A stretch of DNA of 64,000 nucleotides, from the NCBI GenBank assembly GCA_016214995.1, contig JACRML010000059.1, positions 23,010 to 87,009 on the forward strand. The letters are read 5' to 3'. Source of the stretch: Deltaproteobacteria bacterium. Its GTDB lineage: Bacteria; Desulfobacterota; GWC2-55-46; UBA9637. The notes beneath the pieces are model-generated. The model was given only the letters and a program-made list of their open reading frames with translations, had not been told where the DNA came from and did not search any database. Made by a program: the position numbers and the translations under genes. Shown piece by piece: positions 2,003 to 63,549 of the stretch; within the stretch, counting starts at the first letter, position 1; every line of letters starts with the position of its first letter.

Positions 2003-2097
2003 CCCAAAAATAGACATTGATTTTTGGGTAAACTGGTAAGTTGGCTGACAGACAACACACCCCTTTAGTCCCCTCTCGAGAGGGGACTAAAGGGGTG
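2003..2097 (-). repeat. Mosaic multi-hairpin element, copy A (truncated): terminal CCAAAAA/TTTTTGG hairpin, linker and part of the ACACACCCC hairpin
   Basis: Long near-identical blocks are shared with copies at 32331, 53065 and 61116. The strand symbol gives orientation relative to copy D. Confidence 0.8.
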
Positions 2098-2108
2098 CAG
2101 CAGGCGTT

Positions 2109-20000: not shown

Positions 20001-20131
20001 AAATAAACTCCTTAATAAAAAATCCGAATGACAAAGCTCAAAGTTCGAATGAATGTCAAATGACTAAAAATTTTTCCTTTGTCATTTGGGCTTTGAATTT
20101 TATTTGACATTTGGATTTTGATATTTGGGTT

Positions 20132-21094
20132 CTATTTCCTGCTGAACCTTCTGAAACCGGATGTGGTAATAACTTCCACATTATCAAGTATGCTGTCCAA
20201 AAGCAGGTTCATACCAAGATTATCGCTGCTAATATGGCCTGCAATGACTACATTGATGTGATGCTTTTCCGCCTCTTTCCTGTGGTCTTCACCTATATGC
20301 ATGCCTACAATGGTGCCAACACCGGCAACAGACAGTTTTTCAAAAATATTCTTGCTCCCGCCTGTACCGCCTGTCATATCAACAAAGACCTTGCCTGCCC
20401 TTCTCTTCTCTGAATTTACAAACACCTTTGGTCCCGCCTTTTCATTCAAGGCATCTTTGTATTCAGGTATATCTCTCAATATATCTATAATATCAGAAAC
20501 TCTGCCGGGTTTTTTATCGTCAAAAATCTTTTGCAGGTAATCGGTGACTGCATTATCGGAAGGGGTGTGGATGCACATAAAGGGAATATCCAAAAGCCTT
20601 GCAGCGTCTATTGCCCTTGTGTGATTGGCTGGAGAGATTCTTCTTTCAACCTCGCTTATCCTTTCTGCCATAAGGTCTTCGGCCACATTGATGGGAACGC
20701 CGTATTTGAGCAGGATGCCTGACTGCATATCCATGACTTCATAAAGTGCAGCCATGGCCCTGCCTTCGGGATGATGGGAAATTATAAGGTCAACCGGTTT
20801 GCCGCTGTTCCTCAGCCTGTCGGCAAGGAGAACCTCGCCAACCTCCATGTCAATGCCAACCAAAACGGCTTTTATATCCCTGTCAGGCTCGCCGTATAAT
20901 ATACGGGTATCGGCATAGGGATTTGTCAAGCTCTCTTTATCAAAAACTTTTTTATCCGCATCCTTGATCTCTTCAAAATCCTTTTTAGCCCTTCTCAACT
21001 CGGCCTCAACCTCAGCCTTGCCTCTGGGGTCAAGCTCAATGCCGCGCTGCACAGCCTTATTATAAATATCTTTTATCTTCACTTTACCTCTCAA
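20132..21094 (-). CDS. NIF3-family (GTP cyclohydrolase 1 type 2 homologue) dinuclear-metal protein
   Basis: DLIISHHP, CIHTPSDN and AGHISSD motifs at NIF3/YbgI-like spacing. Confidence 0.7.
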   Translation of the reverse strand: MRGKVKIKDIYNKAVQRGIELDPRGKAEVEAELRRAKKDFEEIKDADKKVFDKESLTNPYADTRILYGEPDRDIKAVLVGIDMEVGEVLLADRLRNSGKPVDLIISHHPEGRAMAALYEVMDMQSGILLKYGVPINVAEDLMAERISEVERRISPANHTRAIDAARLLDIPFMCIHTPSDNAVTDYLQKIFDDKKPGRVSDIIDILRDIPEYKDALNEKAGPKVFVNSEKRRAGKVFVDMTGGTGGSKNIFEKLSVAGVGTIVGMHIGEDHRKEAEKHHINVVIAGHISSDNLGMNLLLDSILDNVEVITTSGFRRFSRK

Positions 21095-32190: not shown

Positions 32191-32331
32191 GAGCTTGTTG
32201 AAAAACTCAACAATCTCTGATTACACAGATAAAAAATATAGATTACACAGATTTAAACTATTGAATTATCTGTGTAATCGTTTTTATAAATCTGTGTAAT
32301 CAGGGCTGCTGGGGTCTTTTTCAACAGCCTG
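32191..32331 (-). mobile_element. GATTACACAGAT MITE, copy 3, inserted in the terminal hairpin of mosaic copy B
   Basis: It is the reverse complement of copy 1 over its whole length. It abuts GATTTTTGGGGAAACC, which is the right half of the mosaic terminal hairpin. Confidence 0.8.
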
Positions 32332-32563
32332 ATTTTTGGGGAAACCTGCAAGTTGGCTGCCAGACAACACACCCCTAAATACCCTCTCGAGAGGGGACTA
32401 AAGGGGTGTGTTATTTGCTACGAGCCGTATATCACCAATACGGTGAGAAGAAAAAATGTGCCGATAACGAAGTATGGCAGGCAAATCGGCTGGCTACACT
32501 TGCTGTGAAGCAATTGCAAGTGGAAGATGTAAAATAGCGAGGTTTTTAATCGCTATTTTACGG
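32331..32563 (-). repeat. Mosaic multi-hairpin element, copy B (nearly complete; terminal hairpin interrupted by a MITE)
   Basis: Collinear with copy D except for small indels. Its end CCGTAA provides the last codon and the stop codon of the PPIase gene. Confidence 0.85.
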
Positions 32564-34066
32564 TCTACCCTGAATCCTGCCAAGTTCTTTCTGGTTTATA
32601 TCTATTGGCACTGTTTCTCTTAGCCGTTTTATATATCCACTTAATGCAGCATTAAATTTCTCCGTGCCTATTATTCTATTTATATCGCTTTTCACCCTTT
32701 CTAAAGATATATAAGCACCTTTTTCAATATCACGAACCTCCAAAACTATATAACCCATCTCTATAGGAAATGGCCCCAGAATACTTCCTTCCTTTGCCTC
32801 CATCACAGCCTTTTGAATATCGCCTGAGAGTTGATTTATCTGTACCCATCCGATATCGCCGTTCTTTTCCTTGTAAGGATCTGTAGATTTGTCTCTTGTC
32901 GGATAAGAAAAATCAGCCTCCTTTTTAAGGTCATCATATAAGGCCTTGGCCTCTTCTTTATCTATAACATTTATCATCCTTAAAGACACCTTGTCAGATT
33001 CCCGGTATTTTTCCTTGTTTGCATCATAATATTTAAGAATATCTTTTTCATCAACCTTTACCTCAGGGAAAATCATCTTTCTCTTAAATTGTTCTATAAG
33101 CTGCATCTCTCTGTACTTCTTTATCTTTGCCTTAATCTTGTCATCATTCCAATACTTCCTGCCCATTGCCTCATTGTCAAGAATTTTATGAAGGATAAGT
33201 CTATCCAAGACCCCGCTCATTGCCCCCTCATCCTGCGCCTTTGAAACATTCAAATTACTTAATACCTCTCTACCGAATATTGATTCACCATTCACCTCTG
33301 CGATAGGCTTATCAAAAAGCTCAGCCTTGTCGCGAGGCAATGCGTTTAACAACTCATCATAGATTTTCACTTTTGCCTTTTGCCGAATCTCTGCAAAATA
33401 CTCCCTTTCCCTTGCCTTTGACTTTTCATTAAAAAGCCATTTCCTTATTTCCTCTTTATCCATAGCTGACACATTTCTTGGCTCTTTCTTTTTGTCAGAA
33501 ATATCCGTCCCTTTATTAGCCCCTTCCTTAACAGCATCCGTTTTCTGTTTATCATCCTTTTCTTTATCGGCTTTTTCTTGTACCATCTTCTTCAATTGTT
33601 TCTGATAATAGTCTTCTACCTCTTCATCCGCTACCGTAGTCTTATTTAATATCTCATCCCGACGAAGCCTCTCAAGAAACAGATTCAGGGCATAAGTATC
33701 CATGCTTATTATAAAATCTGTTTCTTTATCAAGCCCAATGTTCTTAGCCTCTATTGACATAAGCTTATTATCTATAAGCTCATTCAGAAGTTTGCCAATA
33801 TCCTGTATCGCAAAGGAACTTTGTTCAGAAAGTGTCTTGCCTGCCCATTTGATCCTATTCAGCTTGCTCATCTCATCCAAAAATTCATCTTTTGTAATTA
33901 CCTCATTTCCAATTTTGGCAATATATATATCTTTTTTCTTAGAGGTAAACGGCCAGAACCCTGATGAATCGGCAGGATTGAGTATAACTGCTAAAATCAT
34001 TAATACTATAACTATAGAAACGGCATCCCTCAATCTCAAGTTTGAGTTTGATATACTTATCATCAT
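32558..34066 (-). CDS. Peptidyl-prolyl cis-trans isomerase, SurA/PpiD-like with a parvulin (PpiC) domain
   Basis: An N-terminal membrane anchor and a SurA-N-like chaperone region are followed by a C-terminal rotamase-like region (...SLRMINV...GDIGWV...GPFPIEMGYIVLEV). Confidence 0.75.
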   Translation of the reverse strand: MMISISNSNLRLRDAVSIVIVLMILAVILNPADSSGFWPFTSKKKDIYIAKIGNEVITKDEFLDEMSKLNRIKWAGKTLSEQSSFAIQDIGKLLNELIDNKLMSIEAKNIGLDKETDFIISMDTYALNLFLERLRRDEILNKTTVADEEVEDYYQKQLKKMVQEKADKEKDDKQKTDAVKEGANKGTDISDKKKEPRNVSAMDKEEIRKWLFNEKSKAREREYFAEIRQKAKVKIYDELLNALPRDKAELFDKPIAEVNGESIFGREVLSNLNVSKAQDEGAMSGVLDRLILHKILDNEAMGRKYWNDDKIKAKIKKYREMQLIEQFKRKMIFPEVKVDEKDILKYYDANKEKYRESDKVSLRMINVIDKEEAKALYDDLKKEADFSYPTRDKSTDPYKEKNGDIGWVQINQLSGDIQKAVMEAKEGSILGPFPIEMGYIVLEVRDIEKGAYISLERVKSDINRIIGTEKFNAALSGYIKRLRETVPIDINQKELGRIQGRP

Positions 34067-35957: not shown

Positions 35958-37069
35958 TGCGGCTTGAGGATTTTAACTATCATCTACCAAAAGAACTTAT
36001 TGCCCAGCTTCCCTGTGAGAGACGAGATAAATCAAAATTGATGATACTCCACAAGAAAGACGGGACAGTTGAACATAGAATTTTTTTTGAATTGACAGAC
36101 TATCTTAAACCGGGAGATGTTCTTGTATTAAACAATACAAAGGTTATCCCTGCAAGGCTCTTTGGAAATAAAATAACAGGCGGAGCAATAGAGGTCCTCT
36201 TAATACAAAAATTAGAAATAAGAAATCAGGAATCAGAAATTTCACACCCTGCTTACCACATCCCACATCCCACATCCCAAACATGGCGTTGTTTGATAAA
36301 CTCATCAAAGGGTCTAAAACAAGGCTCTGATGTTTTTTTTGAATCGGGGCTAAATGGCAGGATTATAGAAAAAGCGAATGATGGCAGTTGGATTATTGAG
36401 CTTTACGCTGCTGTTGAAATTGATAAGGCAATAGAGCAGATTGGAAGAATGCCTCTGCCTCGTTATATTAAAAGGAGGCAGATGGCAGTGGGCAGTGGGC
36501 AAGATAGAATCTCTGAACTTGACAGAGAAAGATATCAAACAGTCTTTGCAAAAGAGAAAGGAGCAATTGCAGCCCCAACCGCAGGATTGCATTTTACCGA
36601 TGAGCTTTTAAAAAAAACTCAGGAACTTGGGGTGCAGATTTTTTACATAACCCTGCATACTGGTTTGGGCACATTTAAACCAGTAAAAACAGAGGATATA
36701 ACAAAGCATAAGATAGAGTCAGAATATTACAAGGTTGCTGCTGCTACATTTGAAACTATTAAAAAGGCAAAACATGAAAACAGGAGAATTATTGCTGTCG
36801 GCTCAACAGTTGCAAAAACATTGGAGACAATTGTAAGGCGTAGCTGGGAGGAACCAAACTTGAGCGGCTATACAGACCTGTTTATCTATCCTGGATACAA
36901 ATTTAATGCAGCAGATGCGCTGATAACAAATTTTCATCTCCCTAAATCAACCTTGTTTATGCTTGTATCAGCATTTGCAGGAAAAGACTTGGTAAGGAAA
37001 GCCTACCAGGAGGCCATAAAGCAAGGCTATAGGTTTTTCAGCTATGGCGATGCAATGATGATAATATGA
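35957..37069 (+). CDS. queA: S-adenosylmethionine:tRNA ribosyltransferase-isomerase
   Basis: MRLEDFNYHLPKELIAQ, PTAGLHFT and FFSYGDAMMI are present, with end-to-end QueA similarity apart from the low-complexity inserts. Confidence 0.95.
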   Translation: MRLEDFNYHLPKELIAQLPCERRDKSKLMILHKKDGTVEHRIFFELTDYLKPGDVLVLNNTKVIPARLFGNKITGGAIEVLLIQKLEIRNQESEISHPAYHIPHPTSQTWRCLINSSKGLKQGSDVFFESGLNGRIIEKANDGSWIIELYAAVEIDKAIEQIGRMPLPRYIKRRQMAVGSGQDRISELDRERYQTVFAKEKGAIAAPTAGLHFTDELLKKTQELGVQIFYITLHTGLGTFKPVKTEDITKHKIESEYYKVAAATFETIKKAKHENRRIIAVGSTVAKTLETIVRRSWEEPNLSGYTDLFIYPGYKFNAADALITNFHLPKSTLFMLVSAFAGKDLVRKAYQEAIKQGYRFFSYGDAMMII

Positions 37070-37399
37070 ATCCTTACATATGTTCGAAATCATATGGCAA
37101 GCCGAAATAGCAATAATCGGTAGCATTGTCAAGAGGAGACCTATAGTCAATGACATAAATAAGCAGATAGCTTTTTTAAATAAATTTCTAATTTCCAAAT
37201 CCTAATTTCTAATAAAAAGTCAAATATCAAATAAAAATCAACACATTGAAATTTTAGTCATTGAACATTTTATTGAAAATTAGGCATTAGGATTTAGAAA
37301 TTGTAGTTAGACATTATCCATGTCTCCAATATTCTACGCTACCAAATATTTAACCCTTTATTTTTATTTCGCTATAAGATATTATTCTGCGGATAATAA

Positions 37400-42877: not shown

Positions 42878-43080
42878 ATAGTCAACGATAAAAATAAGTA
42901 GATGCTACAATAAAATTCCTAATTTCTAAATCCTAATTTCTAATAACAAATGAAACTTCAAGGCTTGATTTTTTAATTTTATTAGAAATTAGAAATTAGA
43001 ACTTAGGAATTCTTCTAATGTTTCATTAGAAACATGTCCCCGAAGGCCTTCATCGGGGATTAGACATTAGGATTTAGGAT
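42878..43080 (+). repeat. Conserved 37-nt box (ATAGTCAACGATAAAAATAAGTAGATGCTACAATAAA) plus long CTAATTTCTAA-type heptamer hairpin, copy 1
   Basis: The box recurs, reverse-complemented on the plus strand, at 59757-59793 and 62055-62091, each time next to the same kind of hairpin. Confidence 0.75.
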
Positions 43081-43083
43081 TTC

Positions 43084-47890: not shown

Positions 47891-48785
47891 TCACCTTTCC
47901 TTATGATGCAACTCCTGTTGTGCTACTGCTTTCTTTGCCCTTCTATCCAACAGGGTAGTTATTGGTCCTGATACTGCATAACCCAGTGTCAGCACAAAAA
48001 ACATCACCTGTGGTTCTGCGGCTATAACAATAAGCAAAAATATCAATCCTACCAACAGCCTGAATGGCATACGCTGTGCAGGATTTAATTCCTTGAAGCT
48101 GTAATATTTGACATTGCTCACCATGAGGAATGCAAGGGCATAAACCATAATCAATATGGTTATATGTTTGGTGATATCCTCATAGCCGAAATGATAAAAT
48201 ATCAACACGGTTGCGGCTACAAGAGAAGCAGCAGCAGGAATCGGCAGGCCGTTGAACCTTTTGCTCTCAATGGTATTTATCTGTATATTGAACCTGGCAA
48301 GTCTTAATGCCCCGCACACCACATACAAAAATGCAGCCAGCCAGCCATACCGGTCAAAAGGCCGCAGCGCCCATGTAAATATTAATATGCCAGGTGCAAG
48401 TCCAAATGCTATCAGATCTGACAACGAATCATACTCAATACCAAACTTGCTTGTTGACTTTGTAAGTCTCGCAATTCTCCCGTCTAACCCATCCAATACA
48501 GCAGATATAAGTATAGCAATAGCTGCCTTGTCAAATTCCCAACGAATCATACTCAACGCCAAACTTGCTTGTTGACTTTGTAAGTCTCGCAATTCTTCCG
48601 TCTAACCCATCCAATACAGCAGATATAAGTATAGCAATAGCTGCCTTGTCAAATTCCCCATCCAGAGATGCGATGATGGAATAAAACCCTCCGAAAAGAC
48701 TAGCTGATGTAATGAGGTTAGGAAGAAGGTATATCCCTCTTTTTATGCCGCCTTTTTGCCTTGTCTTTAAATTTTCATCTATCAT
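47891..48785 (-). pseudogene. pssA: CDP-diacylglycerol--serine O-phosphatidyltransferase, reading frame split by a 118-bp tandem duplication
   Basis: ORFs 48531..48785 and 47891..48592 both encode EFDKAAIAILISAVLDGLDGRIARLTKSTSKFG(V/I)EYDSL. The first ORF stops 2 codons after the duplication junction. The CDP-alcohol phosphatidyltransferase motif DG..R...G...D...D is complete only in the second ORF. Confidence 0.75.
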
Positions 48786-49576: not shown

Positions 49577-50734
<1,158 letters not shown>

Positions 50735-51223
50735 TTACTTCCCACTCTTCGGGCTTCTTGCCATTGCAATCTTACCTGTTCTTACTATCTCTTTAATACC
50801 GAATGGCCTTAAAAGCTCTGTAATAGCGCCCACCTTTTCTGCATCGCCTGTCATCTCAATAGTATATGTTGTTGGGCTTACATCAACAACCTTGCCTCTG
50901 AAGATATCTATAACGCTCAGTATCTCAGCTCTGTCATCTGCATTTGCATTGACCTTTATCAGGGCTAATTCCCTTTCAATGTGCTCTTCGGCTGTCAGAT
51001 CGCTTACCTTGATAACATTGATAAGCTTATTCAGCTGCTTTGTAATCTGCTCTACAATCTGGTCATCTCCTGTAGTAACAATCGTCATCCTTGAAACCTT
51101 CGGGTCAAGGGTCTCCGCAACACACAGGCTTTCAATATTGAAGCCCCTGCCAGAGAAAAGGCTGGAGACCTTGCTCAAGACGCCAAACTCATTGTCTACA
51201 AGAATTGATATGGTGTGACGCAT
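50735..51223 (-). CDS. ilvN: Acetolactate synthase small (regulatory) subunit
   Basis: MRHTISILVDNEFGVLSKVSSLFSGRGFNIESL is an ACT-domain N-terminus typical of IlvN/IlvH. Confidence 0.9.
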   Translation of the reverse strand: MRHTISILVDNEFGVLSKVSSLFSGRGFNIESLCVAETLDPKVSRMTIVTTGDDQIVEQITKQLNKLINVIKVSDLTAEEHIERELALIKVNANADDRAEILSVIDIFRGKVVDVSPTTYTIEMTGDAEKVGAITELLRPFGIKEIVRTGKIAMARSPKSGK

Positions 51224-51322
51224 CCTTCCACCCAACCACAGGAATCAGGAAATAGGAATTAAAAATTAGAAAAACTCTTTTCTATTTCCTCTTTTCTCTT
51301 TCCTTCCACCTTTCATCTGTCT

Positions 51323-53044
51323 TCATACCAGCAGCATCTTATTCAACGGCTGGCCTGCAGGAACCATTGGATAGACATCCTCTTCCCTGTCAATATTAAA
51401 ATCCATAAATACAGGTTTGTTCTTGACAGCCAGGGCCTCTTTTATAACACCGTCTACATCTTCTGGCTTTGTTGCCCTTAACCCAACCGCACCATATGCC
51501 TCTGCTACCTTTACAAAATCAGGGGCAACATCCATGCATGTATATGAGTATCTCTTTTCATAGAAAAACTCCTGCCATTGTCTGACCATACCGAGGAATT
51601 TATTATTAAGTATTGCAATCTTTACAGGCAGTTTATACTGAACTGCAGTTGCCAACTCCTGTATATTCATCTGAATACTGCCATCACCTGCAATATCAAT
51701 GACTATTTTGTCAGGAAATGCAAACTGCGCTCCAATGGCGGCAGGAAAACCAAAACCCATAGTTCCAAGGCCGCCTGATGTCAAAAATGTCCTTGGTTTA
51801 TCAAATTTATAAAACTGCGCTGCCCACATCTGGTTCTGGCCGACTTCAGTGGTGATAATGGCCTTGCCTTTTGTCAGATCATAAATCCTTTCTATGACAT
51901 ATTGCGGTTTTATTTTTTTCTCGTCCAACTTGTAAGAAAGTTTATGCGTCTCTCCCCACTGTTTAATCTGTTCGTGCCATTCGGCAAGAGCATCCTTCTG
52001 CGCCTTCTCGTTCCCACGCTCTGCGTGGGAACGACCCTTTATCTCATCTAGTGCCTTGAGCATGTCTTTGAGAACTGATTTCACATCTCCGACGATTGGC
52101 ACATCAACCCTGACGTTTTTGCTGATAGATGTGGGGTCAATGTCAACATGGATTACCTTTGCATAAGGCGCAAACTCATCTATTTTACCCGTAACTCTGT
52201 CATCAAATCTGGCGCCGATTGCTATGAGGCAGTCTGTGTTTGTTACGGCCATATTGGCGCAGTATGTGCCGTGCATGCCGAGCATTCCGAGAAAAAGCGG
52301 ATGCGTGCCGGGGAAACCGCCGAGTCCCATGAGCGTGTTTGTAACAGGGATATTCAACTTTTCTGCAAATACCCTAAGTTCATCAGATGCATCTGATAAA
52401 ACAACTCCGCCGCCTGTATATAACACAGGTCTTTTTGCTTTGATGATTAATTCAACTGCTTTTTTTATCTGGCCAATATGTCCCTTATATGTTGGCTGAT
52501 AACTTTTCAACTCAACCTTTTCAGGATACTTAAACTCAGCAGATGCGCTTAAAACATCCTTTGGAATATCCACCAGCACAGGGCCAGGCCTTCCTGTTGT
52601 AGCTATGTAAAATGCCTCTTTTATAATCCTGGTTAAATCTTTTATGTCCTTGACCAGATAATTATGTTTAGTACACGGCCTTGTAATGCCGACAATATCT
52701 GCCTCCTGAAAGGCATCATTGCCAATAAGGGCAGTTGGCACCTGGCCTGTAAAAACAACAATGGGAATAGAATCCATATACGCTGTCGCAATCCCTGTAA
52801 CAGTGTTTGTTGCACCGGGACCGGAGGTAACCAGAACAACGCCTGGCTTTCCGCTTGCCCTTGCATAGCCATCTGCCATATGCACAGCACCCTGTTCATG
52901 CCGCACCAGAATATGTTTTAAGGCAGTTACGCCATAAAGCGCATCATATATAGGTAAAACAGCGCCGCCAGGAAAACCGAATATGGTATCCACGCCTTCC
53001 TTTAATAAGCTTTCAAGAAATATCTGTGCACCGTTCTTTTTCAT
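51323..53044 (-). CDS. ilvB: Acetolactate synthase large subunit
   Basis: [28 protein letters not shown] and the TPP motif [14 protein letters not shown]. The 110 upstream codons in the ORF track translate a repeat element. Confidence 0.95.
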
Positions 53045-54795
53045 ATAAATTTTACCTGAGGGTACCCAAAAATAGACTTTGATTTTTGGGGAAACCTGCA
53101 AGTTGCCTGCCAGACGAGGCAGCGGACAATTTTTACGACGAGCCGTATGTTCACCGATACGGTGAGGAGTAAAAATTGTCCGATAACGAAGTATGGCAGG
53201 CAAATCGCAGGTTTGTAAAATAGCGTCCAGTTTGACTTTCTTTTTTCTAACTCTTTGCCCTCTACCTTCAACTCTATCTTTCTGTTCGGAATATCTATCT
53301 CTATCCCATCTCCATCCTGAACAAATGCTATTGGCCCGCCCTCCATTGCCTCGGGCGAGATATGACCTATGCACGGTCCCCGTGTGCCGCCGGAGAATCT
53401 TCCATCCGTAATAAGCGCAACCTTATCTGCCATGCCCATGCCGGTGATAGTCGCTGTGGGCGCAAGCATCTCCCTCATGCCGGGTCCTCCTTTAGGCCCT
53501 TCATATCTTACAACAATAACATCACCGTCTTTTATCTTTCCATTGAGTATTGCCTGCATTGCAGCCTCTTCTGAATCAAAACACCTTGCCTTACCTATAA
53601 AATATTTCGCCTTTTCATTCACAGCAGTCTGCTTTACAACACAGCCGTTAGGAGCGAGATTTCCCTTTAAAACCGCAATGCCCCCCTCTTTATAATATGC
53701 ATTTTCTATTGTCCTTACTACATCACTATCATTAACCTTGGCCTGTTCAGCAATCTCTTTTATATTTTTTTTTGAGACCGTGATATTGTCTTTTAAAAGA
53801 CTTTTCAATCTGTTCATAACAGCAGGAATCCCACCGGCATATTCCAAGTCTTCCATGAAATGATCGCCTGCAGGTTCTAATTTGACAATATTCGGAGTTT
53901 CCCTGCTTATCGTGTCAAATATTTCAAGGGGTAGTTTAATGCCTACCTCATGCGCAATCGCTGGTATATGGAGTGCTGTATTTGTTGAGCCGCCAAGCGC
54001 CATGTCAATCCTTATTGCGTTTTCAAACGCACCCCTTATCATAACCTTTCCGGGTGTTAAATCCTCTTTGACCATCTCAACTATGCGCACACCTGAATCA
54101 AATGCAATTCTCCTCTTGTCGGCAGAGCCTTCAAGACCGGTTGCGCAGCCGACGAGAGACATGCCAAGCGCTTCAGTAACACACGCCATAGTATTTGCAG
54201 TATACATTCCCTGACACGAACCGCCGCCGGGGCATGCACAGAATTCCAGGTCTGAAAGCTCCTGCTCGGTTATCTCCTTATTCTTGAACCTGCCAATTGC
54301 CTCGTATGTATCGCGGACAAACGAGCGGCGCTTCATCTTATACATGCCTGTATGCATTGGCCCTGCTGTAACAACAATTGAAGGCACATCAAGTCTTGCA
54401 GCAGCCATGAGCATTCCCGGCGTTATCTTATCGCAGTTTGTAAGAAGCACCAACCCATCCAAAGCATGAGCTGCTGCCACAGACTCAATCATGTCAGCAA
54501 TGAGCTCTCTGCTCGGCAGAGAGTAATGCATGCCTGTATGCCCCATGGCAATGCCATCGCATATGGCAGGCACGCCGAAAAGGAATGAATGACCGCCGCC
54601 TGTATGCACGCCCTTCTCAATAAATCTCTCAAGAGTCCTCATGCCGATATGCCCGGGCACAAGGTCATTGAAGGATGTGGCAACGCCTATAAACGGCCTG
54701 TCCATCTCCTCTTTTGTCAGACCCGTTGCATAGAGCAGCGCCCTGTGTGGAACCCTTTCAAGTCCTTTTTTTACCCTGTCGCTACGCATAGTCAC
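53041..54795 (-). CDS. ilvD: Dihydroxy-acid dehydratase with a non-native C-terminal tail encoded by a repeat element
   Basis: IlvD motifs run throughout ([36 protein letters not shown]). After residue W523 the 61-codon tail [16 protein letters not shown]... is a translation of mosaic-element copy C. The conserved IlvD C-terminus is absent. Confidence 0.85.
53065..53225 (-). repeat. Mosaic multi-hairpin element, copy C (internal module replaced, distal modules deleted)
   Basis: Shares the terminal hairpin, the linker, the CCGTAT/ATACGG hairpin and the GTTATCGG region with B and D. It also has nested perfect stems TTGCCTGCCA/TGGCAGGCAA and CGGACAATTTTTAC/GTAAAAATTGTCCG. Confidence 0.85.
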
Positions 54796-54796
54796 T

Positions 54797-54895
54797 GAAG
54801 AAACAAGAGGTCAGAAGTAAGAAACAAGAAAATCTTGTATCTTACCTCACGCTTCTTATATCTGACCTCTTGCTTCTTGCGTCTTGCTTCTTGAA
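54797..54895. repeat. Heptamer-periodic inverted array between the DUF465 gene and ilvD (right arm is coding)
   Basis: AGAAACA AGAGGTC AGAAGTA AGAAACA AGAAAAT ... CTGACCT CTTGCTT CTTGCGT CTTGCTT CTTG. Confidence 0.8.
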
Positions 54896-55339: not shown

Positions 55340-56074
55340 TTAGCCTTTCCTCATCTTAAGTTCTGCCTCTGAGGGTCTCAGATATTTAAGCTCAACAGTT
55401 TGAGGGCTGTCACTATCCCCATTTTTAAATCTCTTCCATGCCAGCAAGCCGATGTTTGATGCCTTTATTGTCCACAGATACTCGGGGGCAATAATAGCCT
55501 TATCCTTTAGCATAGCTTTAATAGGATTTCCATATACCTTTAGACCATCACCAAGAAATATTGTCGACTTTGTTATTCTCTCAATAAGTGCTTCAGGGCT
55601 TAAGGCAGCATCGGGCATAAGACAAGTTGCAAGCTGCAGGCCGCAGGTTTCAAGTCTATCATTATCTTGCATCTTGAAACTTGCATCTTGAAACTTGTAG
55701 ATACCCGCATAAACCTCTTTTTTCCGCGCATCCAACAAAGGGCATATCTGTTTGTCAGAATAAGGCAGATTCATTGCCAGCGCCTCTAAAGTTGAGACGC
55801 AAACCACCTTCTTGTTTAAACTCCATGCAAGCCCCTTGATAGTTGAAAGTCCAATCCGCAGCCCTGTAAAAGAACCCGGTCCTGCAGCTAGTGCAAAACC
55901 ATCAACATCTTCTATGCTTGCACCAATACCATGCAGAAGGGTTTTTATTGAAGGCAGCAGTCTCTCTGCATGGGTTTCTTGAATACAGGTTGTTAATTCA
56001 GCAATGAGCCGGCCATCTTCAAGCAGTGCAATGCTCCCTGACGCAGTGGCAGTATCTATAGCAAGTATTTTCAT
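55340..56074 (-). CDS. tsaB: tRNA threonylcarbamoyladenosine biosynthesis protein TsaB
   Basis: MKILAIDTATASGSIALLEDG and GPGSFTGLRIG are present. Confidence 0.9.
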   Translation of the reverse strand: MKILAIDTATASGSIALLEDGRLIAELTTCIQETHAERLLPSIKTLLHGIGASIEDVDGFALAAGPGSFTGLRIGLSTIKGLAWSLNKKVVCVSTLEALAMNLPYSDKQICPLLDARKKEVYAGIYKFQDASFKMQDNDRLETCGLQLATCLMPDAALSPEALIERITKSTIFLGDGLKVYGNPIKAMLKDKAIIAPEYLWTIKASNIGLLAWKRFKNGDSDSPQTVELKYLRPSEAELKMRKG

Positions 56075-56161: not shown

Positions 56162-57559
56162 TTAATTTATCAATCTACGTAAAAACCCAATTATATCTAG
56201 CCGCATCACATCGTTGTATGTCACAAATAGCATCAATAAAACCAGAAGACCAATTCCTATATTCTGGGTCATGGTCATAATCCTCTCGCTCAATGGCTTG
56301 CCCCGGAGCGCCTCTATGCCAAAGAATATAAGAAAACCACCATCCAGAACAGGGATTGGTAATAGGTTCAATATGCCCAACTGCAGGCTTAAGAATGCCA
56401 TGAGAGAAAGAAGCGCTGTCAGGCCTGACTCAGCAGCCTGTCCTGCCACCTGAGCAATCATTAAAGGGCCGCCAAGTGTTTTAATGGATATCTCTCCGAC
56501 AAAAAGCTTTTTTATAATTACAAATGTCATTATGGTTAATTCGCCCATCTTTTTTACCCCCTCAACAACTGCTCCAGCAGGGCCATAACGTCTTGTAACC
56601 GTATCCTGAAAAGGTGATACACCTATTGCATATCCCTTTATGTTTTCATTCCACTGCGACTTAATGCGGAGTTCAAATATCTCATTCCCTCTTTTTACCT
56701 GAAAAAGTCTTTCCTCTGCTGCTTCTTTCTTTTCAGTTTCTGGTTTCTGGCCTCTTGCTTCTTGTTTCTGACTTCCTGCTTCTTGCTTCTGACTCTGGAT
56801 TGCCTGTTGGAGTTCTATCCAGTGGTCTATCTTAACCCCGTCAACAGAAAGGATTGTATCGCCAATCTTTAGCCCGGCTTTTTCAGCAGGCAATCCTTGA
56901 ATAAGCCCGCCCACAGTAGGACTCATGGGAGGGAAAAATCCGCTAACCCCTCCACCGGTTTGAGAAGAGGCTTCGGGGGTAAATGTAATATCTTGAACCC
57001 TACCATTATTTTTAACTATGAGTTTGAGCGCTTTATTCGGGTTGGAGATAATAGCGGTATTAAGCTCCTCCCAGTTTTTAATATACGTGCCGTCTATTGA
57101 TTCTATTACATCTCCCTTTTTTAAACCTGCCTTATCGGCATTTTCACCCATCACAACATAGCCGACTATAGGCTCTTTATCCAAATATGCAGGAACTTGG
57201 ATTCCTATGAGGTATATAAGCGGCAGAAGCGAAAATGCCAGAGTAAGGTTCATTATCGGCCCTGCTGCAACTATTGCCGCCTTTTTTGAAAGAGGTTTCT
57301 TGGCAAATGATCTTTCATTGTCAGTTGGGCTTACCTCTTCACCGGTTGATTCACCAACCATCTTCACATAGCCACCGAGCGGCAGAAGGGATATTAGATA
57401 TTCTGTTTCACCCCTTTTTACGCCGATTATCTTAGGCCCGAAACCGAGGGAAAATTTTAACACTCCGACCCCTGAAAGCTTTGCAATAATAAAGTGGCCA
57501 AGTTCATGTATAAAAACTAAAATACCGAGAACTACTAAAAATGATATAACCGTTGTCAT
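56162..57559 (-). CDS. rseP: RIP (site-2) zinc metalloprotease RseP
   Basis: HELGHF, two PDZ-like regions (GLKKGDVI, GLKIGDTI) and the C-terminal NLLPIPVLDGG motif. Confidence 0.9.
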   Translation of the reverse strand: MTTVISFLVVLGILVFIHELGHFIIAKLSGVGVLKFSLGFGPKIIGVKRGETEYLISLLPLGGYVKMVGESTGEEVSPTDNERSFAKKPLSKKAAIVAAGPIMNLTLAFSLLPLIYLIGIQVPAYLDKEPIVGYVVMGENADKAGLKKGDVIESIDGTYIKNWEELNTAIISNPNKALKLIVKNNGRVQDITFTPEASSQTGGGVSGFFPPMSPTVGGLIQGLPAEKAGLKIGDTILSVDGVKIDHWIELQQAIQSQKQEAGSQKQEARGQKPETEKKEAAEERLFQVKRGNEIFELRIKSQWNENIKGYAIGVSPFQDTVTRRYGPAGAVVEGVKKMGELTIMTFVIIKKLFVGEISIKTLGGPLMIAQVAGQAAESGLTALLSLMAFLSLQLGILNLLPIPVLDGGFLIFFGIEALRGKPLSERIMTMTQNIGIGLLVLLMLFVTYNDVMRLDIIGFLRRLIN

Positions 57560-57606: not shown

Positions 57607-58827
57607 TTACTGCCTATTACTTATTTTTTTTACTATCTCCTTTGCCAATTCTCTGGCACATTTATCAGCTTCCAATATTTCTTCCAATTGTGATGTGCTG
57701 GGCGCTGAGCGCTGAATTTTAGATTTTTTATTCTGGCTTCTGGCTTCCGGCTTCTGGCTTCTGTATTTTTCCATCGTGTCTTCTACAATCTCCGTTATAT
57801 CTGTAAATTTAATTTTCTTCTCTAAAAACGCCTCCACTGCAACTTCGTCAGCGGCATTCAGCACTGCCGGCATAACACCGCCTGTCTTTATTGCCTCATA
57901 TGCAAGCCTAAGCGCCGGGAATCTGTCTTTGTCAGGCTCCATAAATGTAAGTTTATCCATTTTACAAAGGTCAAGCGAACCAATACCGCAGTCAATTCTC
58001 TCATCAGGATAGGTAAGGGCGTAAGATATAGGCCCTTTCATATCCGTTGGCCCAAGTTGGGCCACAATAGAACCGTCAATATATTCAACCATAGAATGAA
58101 CAACGCTCTGAGGATGGATGTGGACGCCTATCTTTTCAGGCAGCATATCAAAAAGCCACATAGCCTCAATTACCTCCAAACCTTTATTCATAAGCGTTGC
58201 TGAATCTATGGTAACCTTTTTACCCATCTTCCACTTTGGATGATTCAATGCCTGTTCATGGGTGATGTCTGACAACTTTTCAATAGGCAGGTTTAAAAAA
58301 GGGCCGCCGGATGCAGTTAGTATCAGTCTTTTTATGTCTCCCTTTTTATGACCCACAAGAGACTGAAATATGGCGCTGTGTTCGCTGTCAATGGGAAGAA
58401 GGTTAATCTTATTTTTTTTGACCTCCTTCATCACTAATCCACCTGCCATAACAAGAACCTCTTTATTAGCAAGGGCAATATCTTTTTTTGCTTTTATAGC
58501 AGCCAGGGTCGGTGCAAGGCCACTTGCCCCAACCAGTGCAGAGACCACCAAATCCACACCGCAGGTAGCTGTTTCGAGCAAACCATCGTCTCCATAATAA
58601 GATTTAGGTTTATATGATAAATCTAGTTTTAATTCATTGATGTCTTTTGCATCTGTAAGCGATATAACCTTTGGCTTGAATTCCTTTATCTGCCTTTTGA
58701 ACAGGTCTTTATTCCTACCTGCTGCAAGGGCTATTATCTTAAATCTGTCTGGATGCCTTCTGACAATCTCAAGGGTGCTCTGGCCTATAGAACCTGTAGA
58801 GCCAAGAATTGCAAGTTTTTTTGCCAT
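57607..58827 (-). CDS. dxr: 1-deoxy-D-xylulose 5-phosphate reductoisomerase
   Basis: LAILGSTGSIGQSTL, LANKE, PIDSEHSAIFQ and NKGLEVIEA motifs. Confidence 0.95.
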   Translation of the reverse strand: MAKKLAILGSTGSIGQSTLEIVRRHPDRFKIIALAAGRNKDLFKRQIKEFKPKVISLTDAKDINELKLDLSYKPKSYYGDDGLLETATCGVDLVVSALVGASGLAPTLAAIKAKKDIALANKEVLVMAGGLVMKEVKKNKINLLPIDSEHSAIFQSLVGHKKGDIKRLILTASGGPFLNLPIEKLSDITHEQALNHPKWKMGKKVTIDSATLMNKGLEVIEAMWLFDMLPEKIGVHIHPQSVVHSMVEYIDGSIVAQLGPTDMKGPISYALTYPDERIDCGIGSLDLCKMDKLTFMEPDKDRFPALRLAYEAIKTGGVMPAVLNAADEVAVEAFLEKKIKFTDITEIVEDTMEKYRSQKPEARSQNKKSKIQRSAPSTSQLEEILEADKCARELAKEIVKKISNRQ

Positions 58828-59618: not shown

Positions 59619-59640
59619 ATATTTACCTCCATTTTCAATG

Positions 59641-59793
59641 AAGTAATTTCTAATGAAATGTCCAATGACTAAATTTCCAACCTGCCTGTGCTATGGCAGA
59701 CAGGTGTTTTTTGATATTTAACATTTTATTGGAAATTAGGATTTAGAAATTAGAAATTTATTCTAGTATCTACTTATATTTGTCATTGACTAT
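59641..59793 (-). repeat. 37-nt box plus heptamer hairpin, copy 2 (between uppS and cdsA)
   Basis: Near-identical to copy 3 over most of its length. The uppS TAG stop lies inside the box. Confidence 0.8.
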
Positions 59794-60539
59794 ATCTTTA
59801 CCTGCTCTCCAACCAGGCCAAATCTTCTTTCCCTATTTTGAAAATCAATGAGCGCTTCAATGAGATGCTGCCTGCTAAAGTCAGGCCATAAGACATCCGT
59901 AACATATATTTCTGTGTATGCCATTTGCCATAAAAGAAAATTACTTATCCTAAATTCACCGCTTGTCCTTATAAGGAGGTCGGGATCAGGATCGCCGGCA
60001 GTATAAAGATATTTCGCAAAAACCTCTTCTGTAATGTCAGCAACACCAATCTTATCTTGCCTTACTTCCATGACAATCCTCTTTACGGCCTCTACAATCT
60101 CAGCCCTTCCTCCATAGCTCAAAGCAAGATTAAGAATCATTCCTGTATTATTCATAGTCTTATCCTCAACTTCTTTTATAATCTTCTGCACCTTGGCCGG
60201 AAGTTCCCCTATGTTGCCGATTGCCCTGAATCGTATATCGTTTCTTACCAATTTTATAAGTTCGCTCCTTAAATGCTGCTCCAGTAATTCCATCAGGGCG
60301 CCAACCTCTGTTTGAGGCCTATTCCAGTTTTCTTTAGAAAACGTATAGAGAGTAAGATAACCAATACCAATCTCTCGACAGAATTCCACTGTATCCTTGA
60401 CAACCTCAATTCCTTTTCTGTGGCCGTTTATCCTGCCAAGAAATCTCTTGTTTGCCCAACGACCATTACCATCCATAATAATGGCAATGTGCTGAGGAAG
60501 CTTTTCTTTTATAAGTCCGTCCATGTCGCTTTGCTCCAT
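59790..60539 (-). CDS. uppS: Undecaprenyl-diphosphate synthase (cis-isoprenyl transferase)
   Basis: HIAIIMDGNGRWA, FSKENWNRP and RTSGEFRISNFLLWQ motifs. Confidence 0.95.
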   Translation of the reverse strand: MEQSDMDGLIKEKLPQHIAIIMDGNGRWANKRFLGRINGHRKGIEVVKDTVEFCREIGIGYLTLYTFSKENWNRPQTEVGALMELLEQHLRSELIKLVRNDIRFRAIGNIGELPAKVQKIIKEVEDKTMNNTGMILNLALSYGGRAEIVEAVKRIVMEVRQDKIGVADITEEVFAKYLYTAGDPDPDLLIRTSGEFRISNFLLWQMAYTEIYVTDVLWPDFSRQHLIEALIDFQNRERRFGLVGEQVKI

Positions 60540-60616
60540 TAGTAAAAATCAGAAATTAGAAAAGAGAAATTAGAAGAGAGAAAAACTCTTTCCTGTTTCC
60601 TAATTCCTCTTTTCTG

Positions 60617-61054
60617 TCATTTTTCAATTTCCTCCGTTCTTAAAGCAATCCCTCTGGCCATCTTATCCAACATACCATTTATAAACGCCGGGGAATCCTC
60701 TGTCCCGTATATCTTTCCAAGTTCTATCGCTTCATCAATAACGACCTTAAAAGGAATATCATTGCAATAAAGCAGTTCAAAAGATGCAAGCCTTAAAATA
60801 CTCTTGTCTATAACAGTGATTCTATCTATAGCCCAGTTGTCTGCATTTGCCTCTATCAACCTGTCTATTTCATCCCTGTGTTTCCAAACTCCGTTCACCA
60901 ATTTTAAAATAAAATCTTTTGCATCTTCTTTAAGTTTTCTTGTTTCTGCCTGTGCGGTTATAATGTCATCTATATCCCCCTCAGCGATATCTAACTGATA
61001 AAGGGTTTCTAATGCAATCATCCTTGTCTTTCGCCTGCTCAACCCCATTGTCAC
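60617..61054 (-). CDS. nusB: Transcription antitermination factor NusB
   Basis: RRKTRMIALETLYQ... and NGMLDK-type motifs, located downstream of ribH as in many bacteria. Confidence 0.9.
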   Translation of the reverse strand: MTMGLSRRKTRMIALETLYQLDIAEGDIDDIITAQAETRKLKEDAKDFILKLVNGVWKHRDEIDRLIEANADNWAIDRITVIDKSILRLASFELLYCNDIPFKVVIDEAIELGKIYGTEDSPAFINGMLDKMARGIALRTEEIEK

Positions 61055-61115: not shown

Positions 61116-61385
61116 CCAAAAACAGGCATTGATTTTTGGGGAAACCTGCAAGTTGGCCGCCAGACAACACACCCCTAAATCCCCTCTCTAGAGGGGACTA
61201 AAGGGGTGTGTTGTTTGCGACGAGCCGTATGTTCACCGATACGGTGAGGAACAAAAATTGGCCGATAACGAAGTCGGGGCACCCAAGCAAAGCTTGGGTC
61301 GGGCAAATCGGCTGGCTCCACTTGCTGCGAAGCAATTGCAAGTGGAAGATGTAAAATAGCGAGGTTTTTAATCGCTATTTTACGG
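61116..61385 (-). repeat. Mosaic multi-hairpin element, copy D (longest, about 270 nt), between ribH and nusB
   Basis: Seven hairpin or linker modules were read directly from the sequence; see the finding for this copy. Confidence 0.85.
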
Positions 61386-61944: not shown

Positions 61945-62092
61945 AGAAATCCTAAATCCTAATGTCTAATTTCTAATGAATGTCCAATGACTAAATTTCC
62001 AATGTTTTTTGACATTTGACATTTTATTAGAAATTAGGATTTAGAAATTAGAAATTTATTGTAGTATCTACTTATTTTTGTCGTTGACTATA
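61945..62092 (-). repeat. 37-nt box plus heptamer hairpin, copy 3 (between ribBA and ribH)
   Basis: Near-identical to copy 2. The box starts 3 nt after the ribBA stop. Confidence 0.8.
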
Positions 62093-63435: not shown

Positions 63436-63549
63436 CCGTAAAATAGCGATTAAAAACCTCGCTATTTTACATCTTCCACTTGCAATTGCTTAGCAGCAAG
63501 TGGAGCCAGCCGATTTGCCCGCCCCGACTTTGCTATCGGCCAATTTTTG
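63436..63549 (+). repeat. Mosaic multi-hairpin element, copy E (first three modules only, inverted relative to the others)
   Basis: The plus strand here matches the minus strand of copies B and D: CCGTAAAATAGCGATTAAAAACCTCGCTATTTTACATCTTCCACTTGCAATTGCTT.GCAGCAAGTGGAGCCAGCCGATTTGCC... Confidence 0.85.

Follow-up and report, generated by a model that had tools for sequence, protein, structure and literature searches.

How does the gene of an essential biosynthetic enzyme come to end in a mobile repeat? This question is raised by ilvD, which encodes dihydroxy-acid dehydratase (DHAD), in a 64,000-nt stretch (hereafter the window) of contig JACRML010000059.1 (positions 23,010 to 87,009) from a Deltaproteobacteria bacterium. 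In this stretch, the open reading frame (ORF) of ilvD passes directly into a truncated copy (copy C) of a 185-nt repeat, which we identify below as a miniature inverted-repeat transposable element (MITE), and stops at the start codon of ilvB. In our judgement there is an even chance that this fusion reflects a real, lineage-specific two-step mutation, in which a MITE insertion was followed by a deletion, and that the resulting allele is impaired or inactive.

We first consider where IlvD ends. The ATG at position 54789 is more likely to be the true start than the upstream GTG, judging from the residues MRSDR with which all orthologues begin, and would yield a protein of 582 aa. The Trp that terminates the IlvD homology is W523 when counted from the GTG and W521 when counted from this ATG. 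Upstream of it the protein belongs to the IlvD family according to the curated whole-protein scores of NCBIfam, with 747.9 bits for PRK00911 (cut-off 644; match 5-529 of 559) and 733 bits for TIGR00110 (cut-off 618; match 1-514 of 543). The N-terminal domain PF00920 is complete (1-315 of 316), and the cluster, Mg and catalytic motifs CDG, NCDK, CPGxGSC and GRFSGGT (roles after PMC5770437) are all present, with C77-D78-G79, C119-D120-K121, C186...C192 and S466 located in invariant columns of our alignments A1, A3 and A4. The C-terminal domain is incomplete: Pfam ILV_EDD_C (PF24877) is matched over positions 1-168 of 191, compared to 1-191 in the closest orthologue P0001, and the terminal helix and the S-A-x-x-G-A-V segment are missing. 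Across the profiles the match stops 23-30 positions short of the end, and the alignments with the solved DHADs 6NTE, 6OVT and 5ZE4 end at the same Trp.

Beyond this Trp, translation of the frame continues through copy C and a 21-nt spacer to a TGA that overlaps the ATG of ilvB, so that ilvD and ilvB show the ATGA stop/start overlap of a putative translationally coupled gene pair. Because ilvB of the related locus L001 likewise starts with ATGAAAAA, this TGA is supplied by the first two codons of ilvB itself (ATG-AAA). The other genes of the ilv-leu operon are intact. A previous sequence-only reading of this DNA had let the IlvD similarity run to the Trp codon at 53227-53229, which the NCBIfam, Pfam and DHAD alignments bear out, and the coordinates that it gave for the 61-codon read-through and for the TGA at 53041-53043 hold. 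The stop-free frame of the MITE is also the frame of ilvB, and a spurious 683-aa ORF (51323-53374, minus strand) begins inside ilvD and runs through the element into ilvB, which could mislead gene callers.

To what extent is the missing segment conserved? The nearest proteins are 88% identical and below and have lengths of 549-584 aa, most of them 550-553 aa. The C-terminal segment is present in 120/120 of the nearest homologues, as S[AS]xxGA in 111 and as close variants in the other 9. The five closest loci (L004 and L005, 92% identity; L006, 89%; L001, 88%; L007, 87%), which belong to groundwater "Deltaproteobacteria" metagenome-assembled genomes (MAGs) or contigs, encode proteins of 545-550 aa in which the Trp is followed by a near-identical tail of 29 residues and then by a stop (5/5), and two of them share the gene order of the window. 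That a conserved tail is missing from the window, as the sequence-only reading had proposed, is thus confirmed, although its length of 30-40 residues was set too high for the close relatives. The same reading would have been contradicted by orthologues ending naturally near W523; none do. It had also stated that the tail is not found nearby, and indeed no native tail sequence was detected in any frame of the whole window, nor is there a second ilvD within it. The idea that IlvD of this lineage is naturally short or differently ended, with nothing lost, is refuted by the tail of the 120 homologues and of the 87-92% relatives, and we give it practically no credence.

Two of these loci also show how ilvD and ilvB are otherwise joined. 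Upstream of ilvD, L001 has the same order as the window (RseP, TsaB, a small ORF and ilvD), and its ilvD stop is separated from ilvB by a spacer of 30 nt; in L007 the spacer has about 105 nt. As shown by these loci, the ancestral arrangement is an ilvD with its own stop, a short spacer and ilvB. When the DNA of the window was aligned with L001, homology extended through AACTGGA, was then interrupted and resumed at the start of ilvB. The element was not found at the ilvD loci of the relatives, and the best genome match is just 92% identical. The site directly 3′ of ilvD is variable: a PhdYeFM/PIN toxin-antitoxin pair is located there in L002 (5952-7100) and L003, and in L004-L006 other unrelated genes stand where ilvB would follow. 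Since the genes after ilvD differ in L002-L006, the junction lies at a recurrent rearrangement site.

At the junction, copy C is identical to the canonical element over 161/161 nt (blastn). The 24 nt missing from its end (AGGTTTTTAATCGCTATTTTACGG) form the loop of the terminal hairpin and its distal arm. With the 3′ inverted repeat and half of its hairpin deleted, the 5′ inverted repeat alone is retained, 20 nt from the ATG of ilvB, which starts 21 nt past the element. Alignments to L001, to the canonical element and in A5 place base 53225 at position 161 of the MITE, where arm and loop of the terminal hairpin meet. The two sides of the junction share no k-mer or microhomology, and the sequence on the ilvD side is unique. 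Read in this orientation, the canonical MITE has one frame free of stops, and the frame that is used here contains a single stop, located within the deleted 24 nt; with two of three frames nearly stop-free, a read-through of 61 codons is less surprising. As RNA, copy C folds with an energy of -72 to -80 kcal/mol (z -7.9 to -9.0), and no intrinsic terminator was found in it. A simple insertion of the MITE into ilvD is excluded, because no ilvD sequence is present beyond the element. The sequence-only reading had described copy C as truncated exactly at the junction with half a hairpin left, which agrees with positions 1-161 of the 185-nt element. Its suggestion that a deletion removed both the distal part of the element and the 3′ end of ilvD, leaving a repeat-encoded C-terminus, finds support in the canonical MITE and in the comparison of the junction with relatives that it had called for, in which L001 and L007 show ilvD stop, spacer and ilvB. 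The coordinates of all features are listed in the table.

Table. Features of the ilvD-ilvB locus, copies of the MITE and AT-rich repeats in the window.
Feature	Position	Strand	Remarks
Fusion ORF (ilvD)	53041..54795	minus	584 aa counted from GTG
IlvD-homologous part of ilvD	53227..54789	minus	521 codons, ATG 54789 to W codon 53227-53229 (cca)
Non-IlvD tail of the fusion ORF	53044..53226	minus	61 codons; MITE-encoded plus 21-nt spacer
ATGA overlap	53041..53044	minus	TGA of fusion ORF (53041-53043) overlaps ATG of ilvB (53042-53044); read from the sequence
ilvB, acetolactate synthase large subunit	51323..53044	minus	573 aa, intact; N-terminus aligns with ilvB of L001
MITE copy C	53065..53225	plus	positions 1-161 of 185; 5′ inverted repeat and hairpin intact beside ilvB
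Putative deletion junction	53225..53226		ilvD sequence ends at 53226 (first position of former codon 524)
GGGTA, presumed surviving copy of the 5-bp target duplication	53060..53064	plus	second copy would be in the deleted stretch
MITE copy A	32330..32563	plus	intergenic, altered 5′ end
MITE copy B	61116..61385	plus	intergenic, nested hairpin insertions, complete 3′ end
Truncated MITE copy	2003..2100	plus	5′ part and nested GGGG hairpin kept
Truncated MITE copy	63436..63548	minus	3′ part alone kept
AT-rich ~7-nt-periodic repeats	20085-20139, 36209-36241, 37182-37338, 42913-43082, 50688-50742		
AT-rich ~7-nt-periodic repeats	51239-51315, 59623-59794, 60546-60626, 61946-62092		

What kind of element is this repeat? 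A 25-mer from it, GATTTTTGGGGAAACCTGCAAGTTG, was found in 92 stretches of metagenome contigs of the Joint Genome Institute (JGI; L084-L175), none of which comes from the organism of the window, the sole shared region being 77% identical. The canonical element of 185 nt was defined from these metagenome copies (reference copy L093 7235-7419). It carries imperfect terminal inverted repeats, CCCAAAAATAG...CTATTTTACGG, that match at 9/11 positions in 37 aligned full-length copies, each within a local hairpin, and its core is a long, imperfect palindrome. Subfamilies differ by compensatory changes in the stems, for example GTTGCCTGCCA/TGGCAGGCAA vs GTTGGCTGCCA/TGGCAGCCAA; several copies (e.g. L097, L099 and L100) contain variable nested GC-rich hairpin insertions and L170 has an inverted core. 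Direct repeats of 5 bp abut both ends in 30/45 distinct insertions, compared to about 1.3 expected from shuffled flank pairs. The element is short and multi-copy, carries no transposase gene and sits at unrelated sites, as is typical of MITEs. Because of its inverted repeats and of the 5-bp target duplications in 30/45 insertions, we conclude that it is a genuine mobile MITE.

The family is abundant across several aquifer bacteria, with at least 88 full-length copies in groundwater metagenomes; the window contains 6 copies or fragments. It could not be matched to anything known in Rfam or in phage and plasmid collections. The Rfam covariance models gave no match at gathering score over the window and none at E<=1 on the canonical copy. 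A known structured RNA had been considered, as the GAGCCGTAT...ATACGG core resembled domain V of group II introns, and was rejected when Rfam gave nothing; a phage or plasmid origin was likewise dropped, as blastn found no match in the respective collections. Translated frames of the MITE match tiny ORFs only.

The other copies in the window show related features. A second small palindromic module, CCCCTAAATCCCCTCTCTAGAGGGGACTAAAGGGGTG, is nested in three of them (2061-2097, 32372-32408 and 61172-61208), where it takes the place of the inner stem present in copy C; this nesting accounts for the word "mosaic" in the sequence-only reading. ORF 32558..34066(-) takes its last sense codon and its TAA stop (32558-32560) from the 3′ inverted repeat of copy A (32558-32563; CCGTAAAATAG on the minus strand), a mild form of the gene-MITE overlap seen at ilvD. 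The copies at 2003-2100 and 63436-63548 are both truncated, and deletions ending inside the element therefore recur in this genome.

The anatomy of the junction and the ancestral state seen in relatives were established directly, as were the facts that the element is mobile and that the gene body shows no decay. The simplest history to accommodate all of this has two steps. In the first, a 185-nt MITE would have entered the short spacer between ilvD and ilvB by transposition, about 20 nt upstream of the start codon of ilvB and with its 5′ inverted repeat toward that gene. In the second, a deletion of about 120-135 nt, ending at the arm/loop boundary of the terminal hairpin on one side and after the first base of ilvD codon 524 on the other, would have taken 24 nt from the end of the MITE, the second copy of the target duplication, what remained of the spacer and, from ilvD, the stop codon together with 89 nt (the last 29 codons). 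Translation would then run for 61 codons to the TGA made by the ATG-AAA of ilvB, and the product would keep its catalytic and cluster-binding motifs, lose the terminal segment of ILV_EDD_C and gain a hydrophobic tail. We infer that the insertion preceded the deletion, and breakage stimulated by the hairpin may have caused the latter.

The replacement tail itself is predicted to be hydrophobic and to lack confidently modelled structure. Its mean Kyte-Doolittle value in a 19-residue window is 2.02 vs 0.56 in the native tail, and its predicted local distance difference test score (pLDDT) is below 50 throughout residues 524-582, although structure prediction cannot judge stability or the dimer interface. 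Among 5.8 billion (5.8e9) protein clusters searched, only four domainless ORFs of 78-102 aa share this tail, and no long ORF with its 3′ end in the element was found among the metagenome copies of the MITE. The fusion is therefore a one-off. Recurrent 3′ fusions of genes to the MITE were considered and rejected, as in 123 element intervals (88 of them full-length) ORFs of at least 250 aa overlap the element only at their 5′ end, which we attribute to over-extended start codons. We also rejected the possibility that the replacement tail is a remnant of the native one. A ...S.N...VVK likeness between the two tails, which led BLASTP to report 95% coverage, is at chance level (shuffle p ~0.09) and is a coincidence, because the DNA of the tail is 100% canonical MITE.

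Does the fusion allele still work? In the sugar-acid dehydratases of this family, the C-terminus of one subunit enters the active site of its partner and even a one-residue C-terminal extension abolishes activity (PMC5770437, PMC9314677, PMC11316719). A model of an IlvD orthologue superposes on 6OVT over essentially the whole chain (TM-score 0.90) and has a short helix (531-537) within the native tail. Since the lost segment is universally conserved, it is expected to matter, and we infer that the event is recent and the fusion allele impaired or inactive, an incipient pseudogene and not a new functional design, with functional consequences that are probably deleterious. Several observations weigh against this view. 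The ilvD body is under selection as strong as that of intact orthologues: pairwise ratios of nonsynonymous to synonymous substitutions (dN/dS) between this ilvD and its relatives are 0.036-0.066 (roughly 0.04-0.07), compared to 0.029-0.068 among the intact orthologues, and residues 1-521 contain two conservative I-to-V deviations at columns that are at least 97% conserved (121 sequences). In branched-chain DHADs, moreover, the extreme C-terminus is shorter and directed away from the active site (PMC9314677, PMC11316719), and in the monomer model of the orthologue the native tail has a moderate pLDDT of 46-66. These points, and the intactness of the other ilv-leu operon genes, speak for a fusion enzyme that is still an active DHAD, its last 29 residues being dispensable or replaced, with the ATGA overlap coupling ilvB translation to ribosomes that melt the MITE RNA. 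Such coupling could be helpful, as a Shine-Dalgarno-like AGG of ilvB lies in a small predicted hairpin just after the -72 kcal/mol structure. We nevertheless consider an active enzyme unlikely: the missing segment is included in the models of both Pfam and NCBIfam for the whole IlvD/Edd family besides being present in all 120 homologues, its replacement is hydrophobic and without confident structure, and the likeness of the two tails is at chance. With a dS of about 0.9-1.0 to the nearest relatives, a recent inactivation would also be invisible in dN/dS. The dN/dS values thus rule out an old pseudogene and are compatible with recent inactivation, and as the rest of ilvD shows no decay, the event is either recent or tolerated. 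A working neo-allele, in which the hydrophobic MITE segment takes the place of the native C-terminal helix or anchors DHAD to the membrane or a partner, and in which read-through is kept so that ribosomes unwind the -72 kcal/mol RNA for ilvB, seems very unlikely to us; if it were true, a repeat-derived C-terminus would have been recruited into an essential Fe-S enzyme.

The junction could also be an artefact of assembly or amplification (through a chimeric join or a curated merge of contigs, or as a minority variant of the population), with a real ilvD that is intact and followed by a complete MITE. The sequence TGGAAGCCNCCNGAG would mark such an intact 3′ end of ilvD before a full MITE, the alternative to the deletion junction. 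Assemblies tend to break at multi-copy repeats with strong hairpins such as this element, and there is no independent contig with the junction: its 30-mer was absent from the metagenome collection, which thus lends the junction no independent support and counts against a real mutation. Exact look-ups of the fusion protein (584 and 582 aa), of TsaB and of IlvB gave no match. Moreover, a direct tandem duplication of 118 bp (48422-48657), located 4.5 kb downstream within the same operon, frameshifts a pssA-like gene (CDP-alcohol phosphatidyltransferase; minus strand, about 47891-48785), the upstream part of which ends in ...KFGVEYDSLGI and a stop, the remainder restarting as ORF 47891..48592. The copies of this duplication are 97% identical, with 3 differences (2 synonymous and 1 I/V), and it is either a real recent event or two alleles concatenated by the assembler. 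A length of 118 equals k-1 for a k-mer of 119. Because the duplication looks like two joined alleles, it lowers the trust in the local assembly and is a further point against a real junction. On the other hand, a graph mis-join is not expected to connect unique ilvD sequence to the middle of an element without a shared k-mer or microhomology, and a contig that entered the MITE from ilvD would include the unique 3′ end of that gene. Truncation is also seen in other MITE copies of the window, which otherwise contains long intact ORFs. Taken together, we regard an artefact as improbable and retain the insertion-deletion history as our preferred explanation.

The window also contains repeats of other kinds. 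Many AT-rich intergenic families with a period of about 7 nt (ATTAGAAATTAGGATTTAGAAATT and relatives) are located at gene boundaries and flank ilvN on both sides. Repeats with a heptamer period (CTTGCTTCTTG...) are found between genes at 54832-54893, 55657-55697 and 57724-57764, and another one (56724-56799) lies in frame inside the RseP ORF 56162..57559(-), where it encodes a 22-residue insert, SQKQEAGSQKQEARGQKPETEKKE. This insert is absent from L001, and the linker in which it lies also varies in L004 and L005.

How does the ilvD fusion compare to known systems? In Coxiella burnetii, the elements QMITE1 and QMITE2 overlap the 3′ ends of functional genes, and in strain Dugway an indel joins enhC to a QMITE2 copy that encodes the last 33 residues; cleavage by RNase III followed by non-stop decay has been proposed as a possible consequence of such overlaps (PMC5896051). 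As in Coxiella, a MITE that forms a stable stem structure lies at the 3′ end of a gene, and an indel results in an in-frame join with an element-encoded C-terminus and a stop just beyond. However, the Coxiella proteins are little truncated or extended, whereas ilvD loses 29 conserved residues of the enzyme domain and gains 61 unrelated ones, and the present element is unrelated to QMITE in sequence and was itself truncated by the same deletion. The Rickettsia palindromic elements (RPEs) are in-frame insertions inside protein-coding genes. Similar to these, the MITE is a palindromic mobile repeat with open frames that are translated within a host protein. RPEs are internal, though, and the host protein continues after them, whereas the IlvD sequence does not resume after copy C, which sets it apart from this class (cited in PMC5896051 and PMC10969869). 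Compared to the branched-chain DHADs of PDB entries 6OVT, 5ZE4 and 6NTE, residues 1-521 are typical (43% identity to 6OVT, with all motifs), in contrast to the end of the protein, where the last 23 positions of the ILV_EDD_C profile are gone and a foreign tail follows. REP/BIME (repetitive extragenic palindromes and bacterial interspersed mosaic elements) are intergenic mosaic repeats of enterobacteria. The MITE family resembles them in being multi-copy, hairpin-rich and intergenic, with mosaic modules and nested insertions, and differs from repeats of the REP/RAYT (REP-associated tyrosine transposase) type by its terminal inverted repeats and 5-bp duplications, the signature of cut-or-copy transposition.

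The ilvD fusion is accordingly a more drastic case of the known overlap of MITEs with the 3′ ends of genes, brought about by a single lineage-specific mutation; no new mechanism is involved. Should the junction be real, annotation pipelines will either report the gene as a 582-aa "IlvD", probably a defective one, or discard it as a pseudogene, and metabolic reconstructions will mis-score the synthesis of valine, leucine and isoleucine in this uncultivated groundwater bacterium. The locus would then offer a clean and datable example of how an essential enzyme can have its end rewritten by a MITE and a deletion associated with a hairpin.

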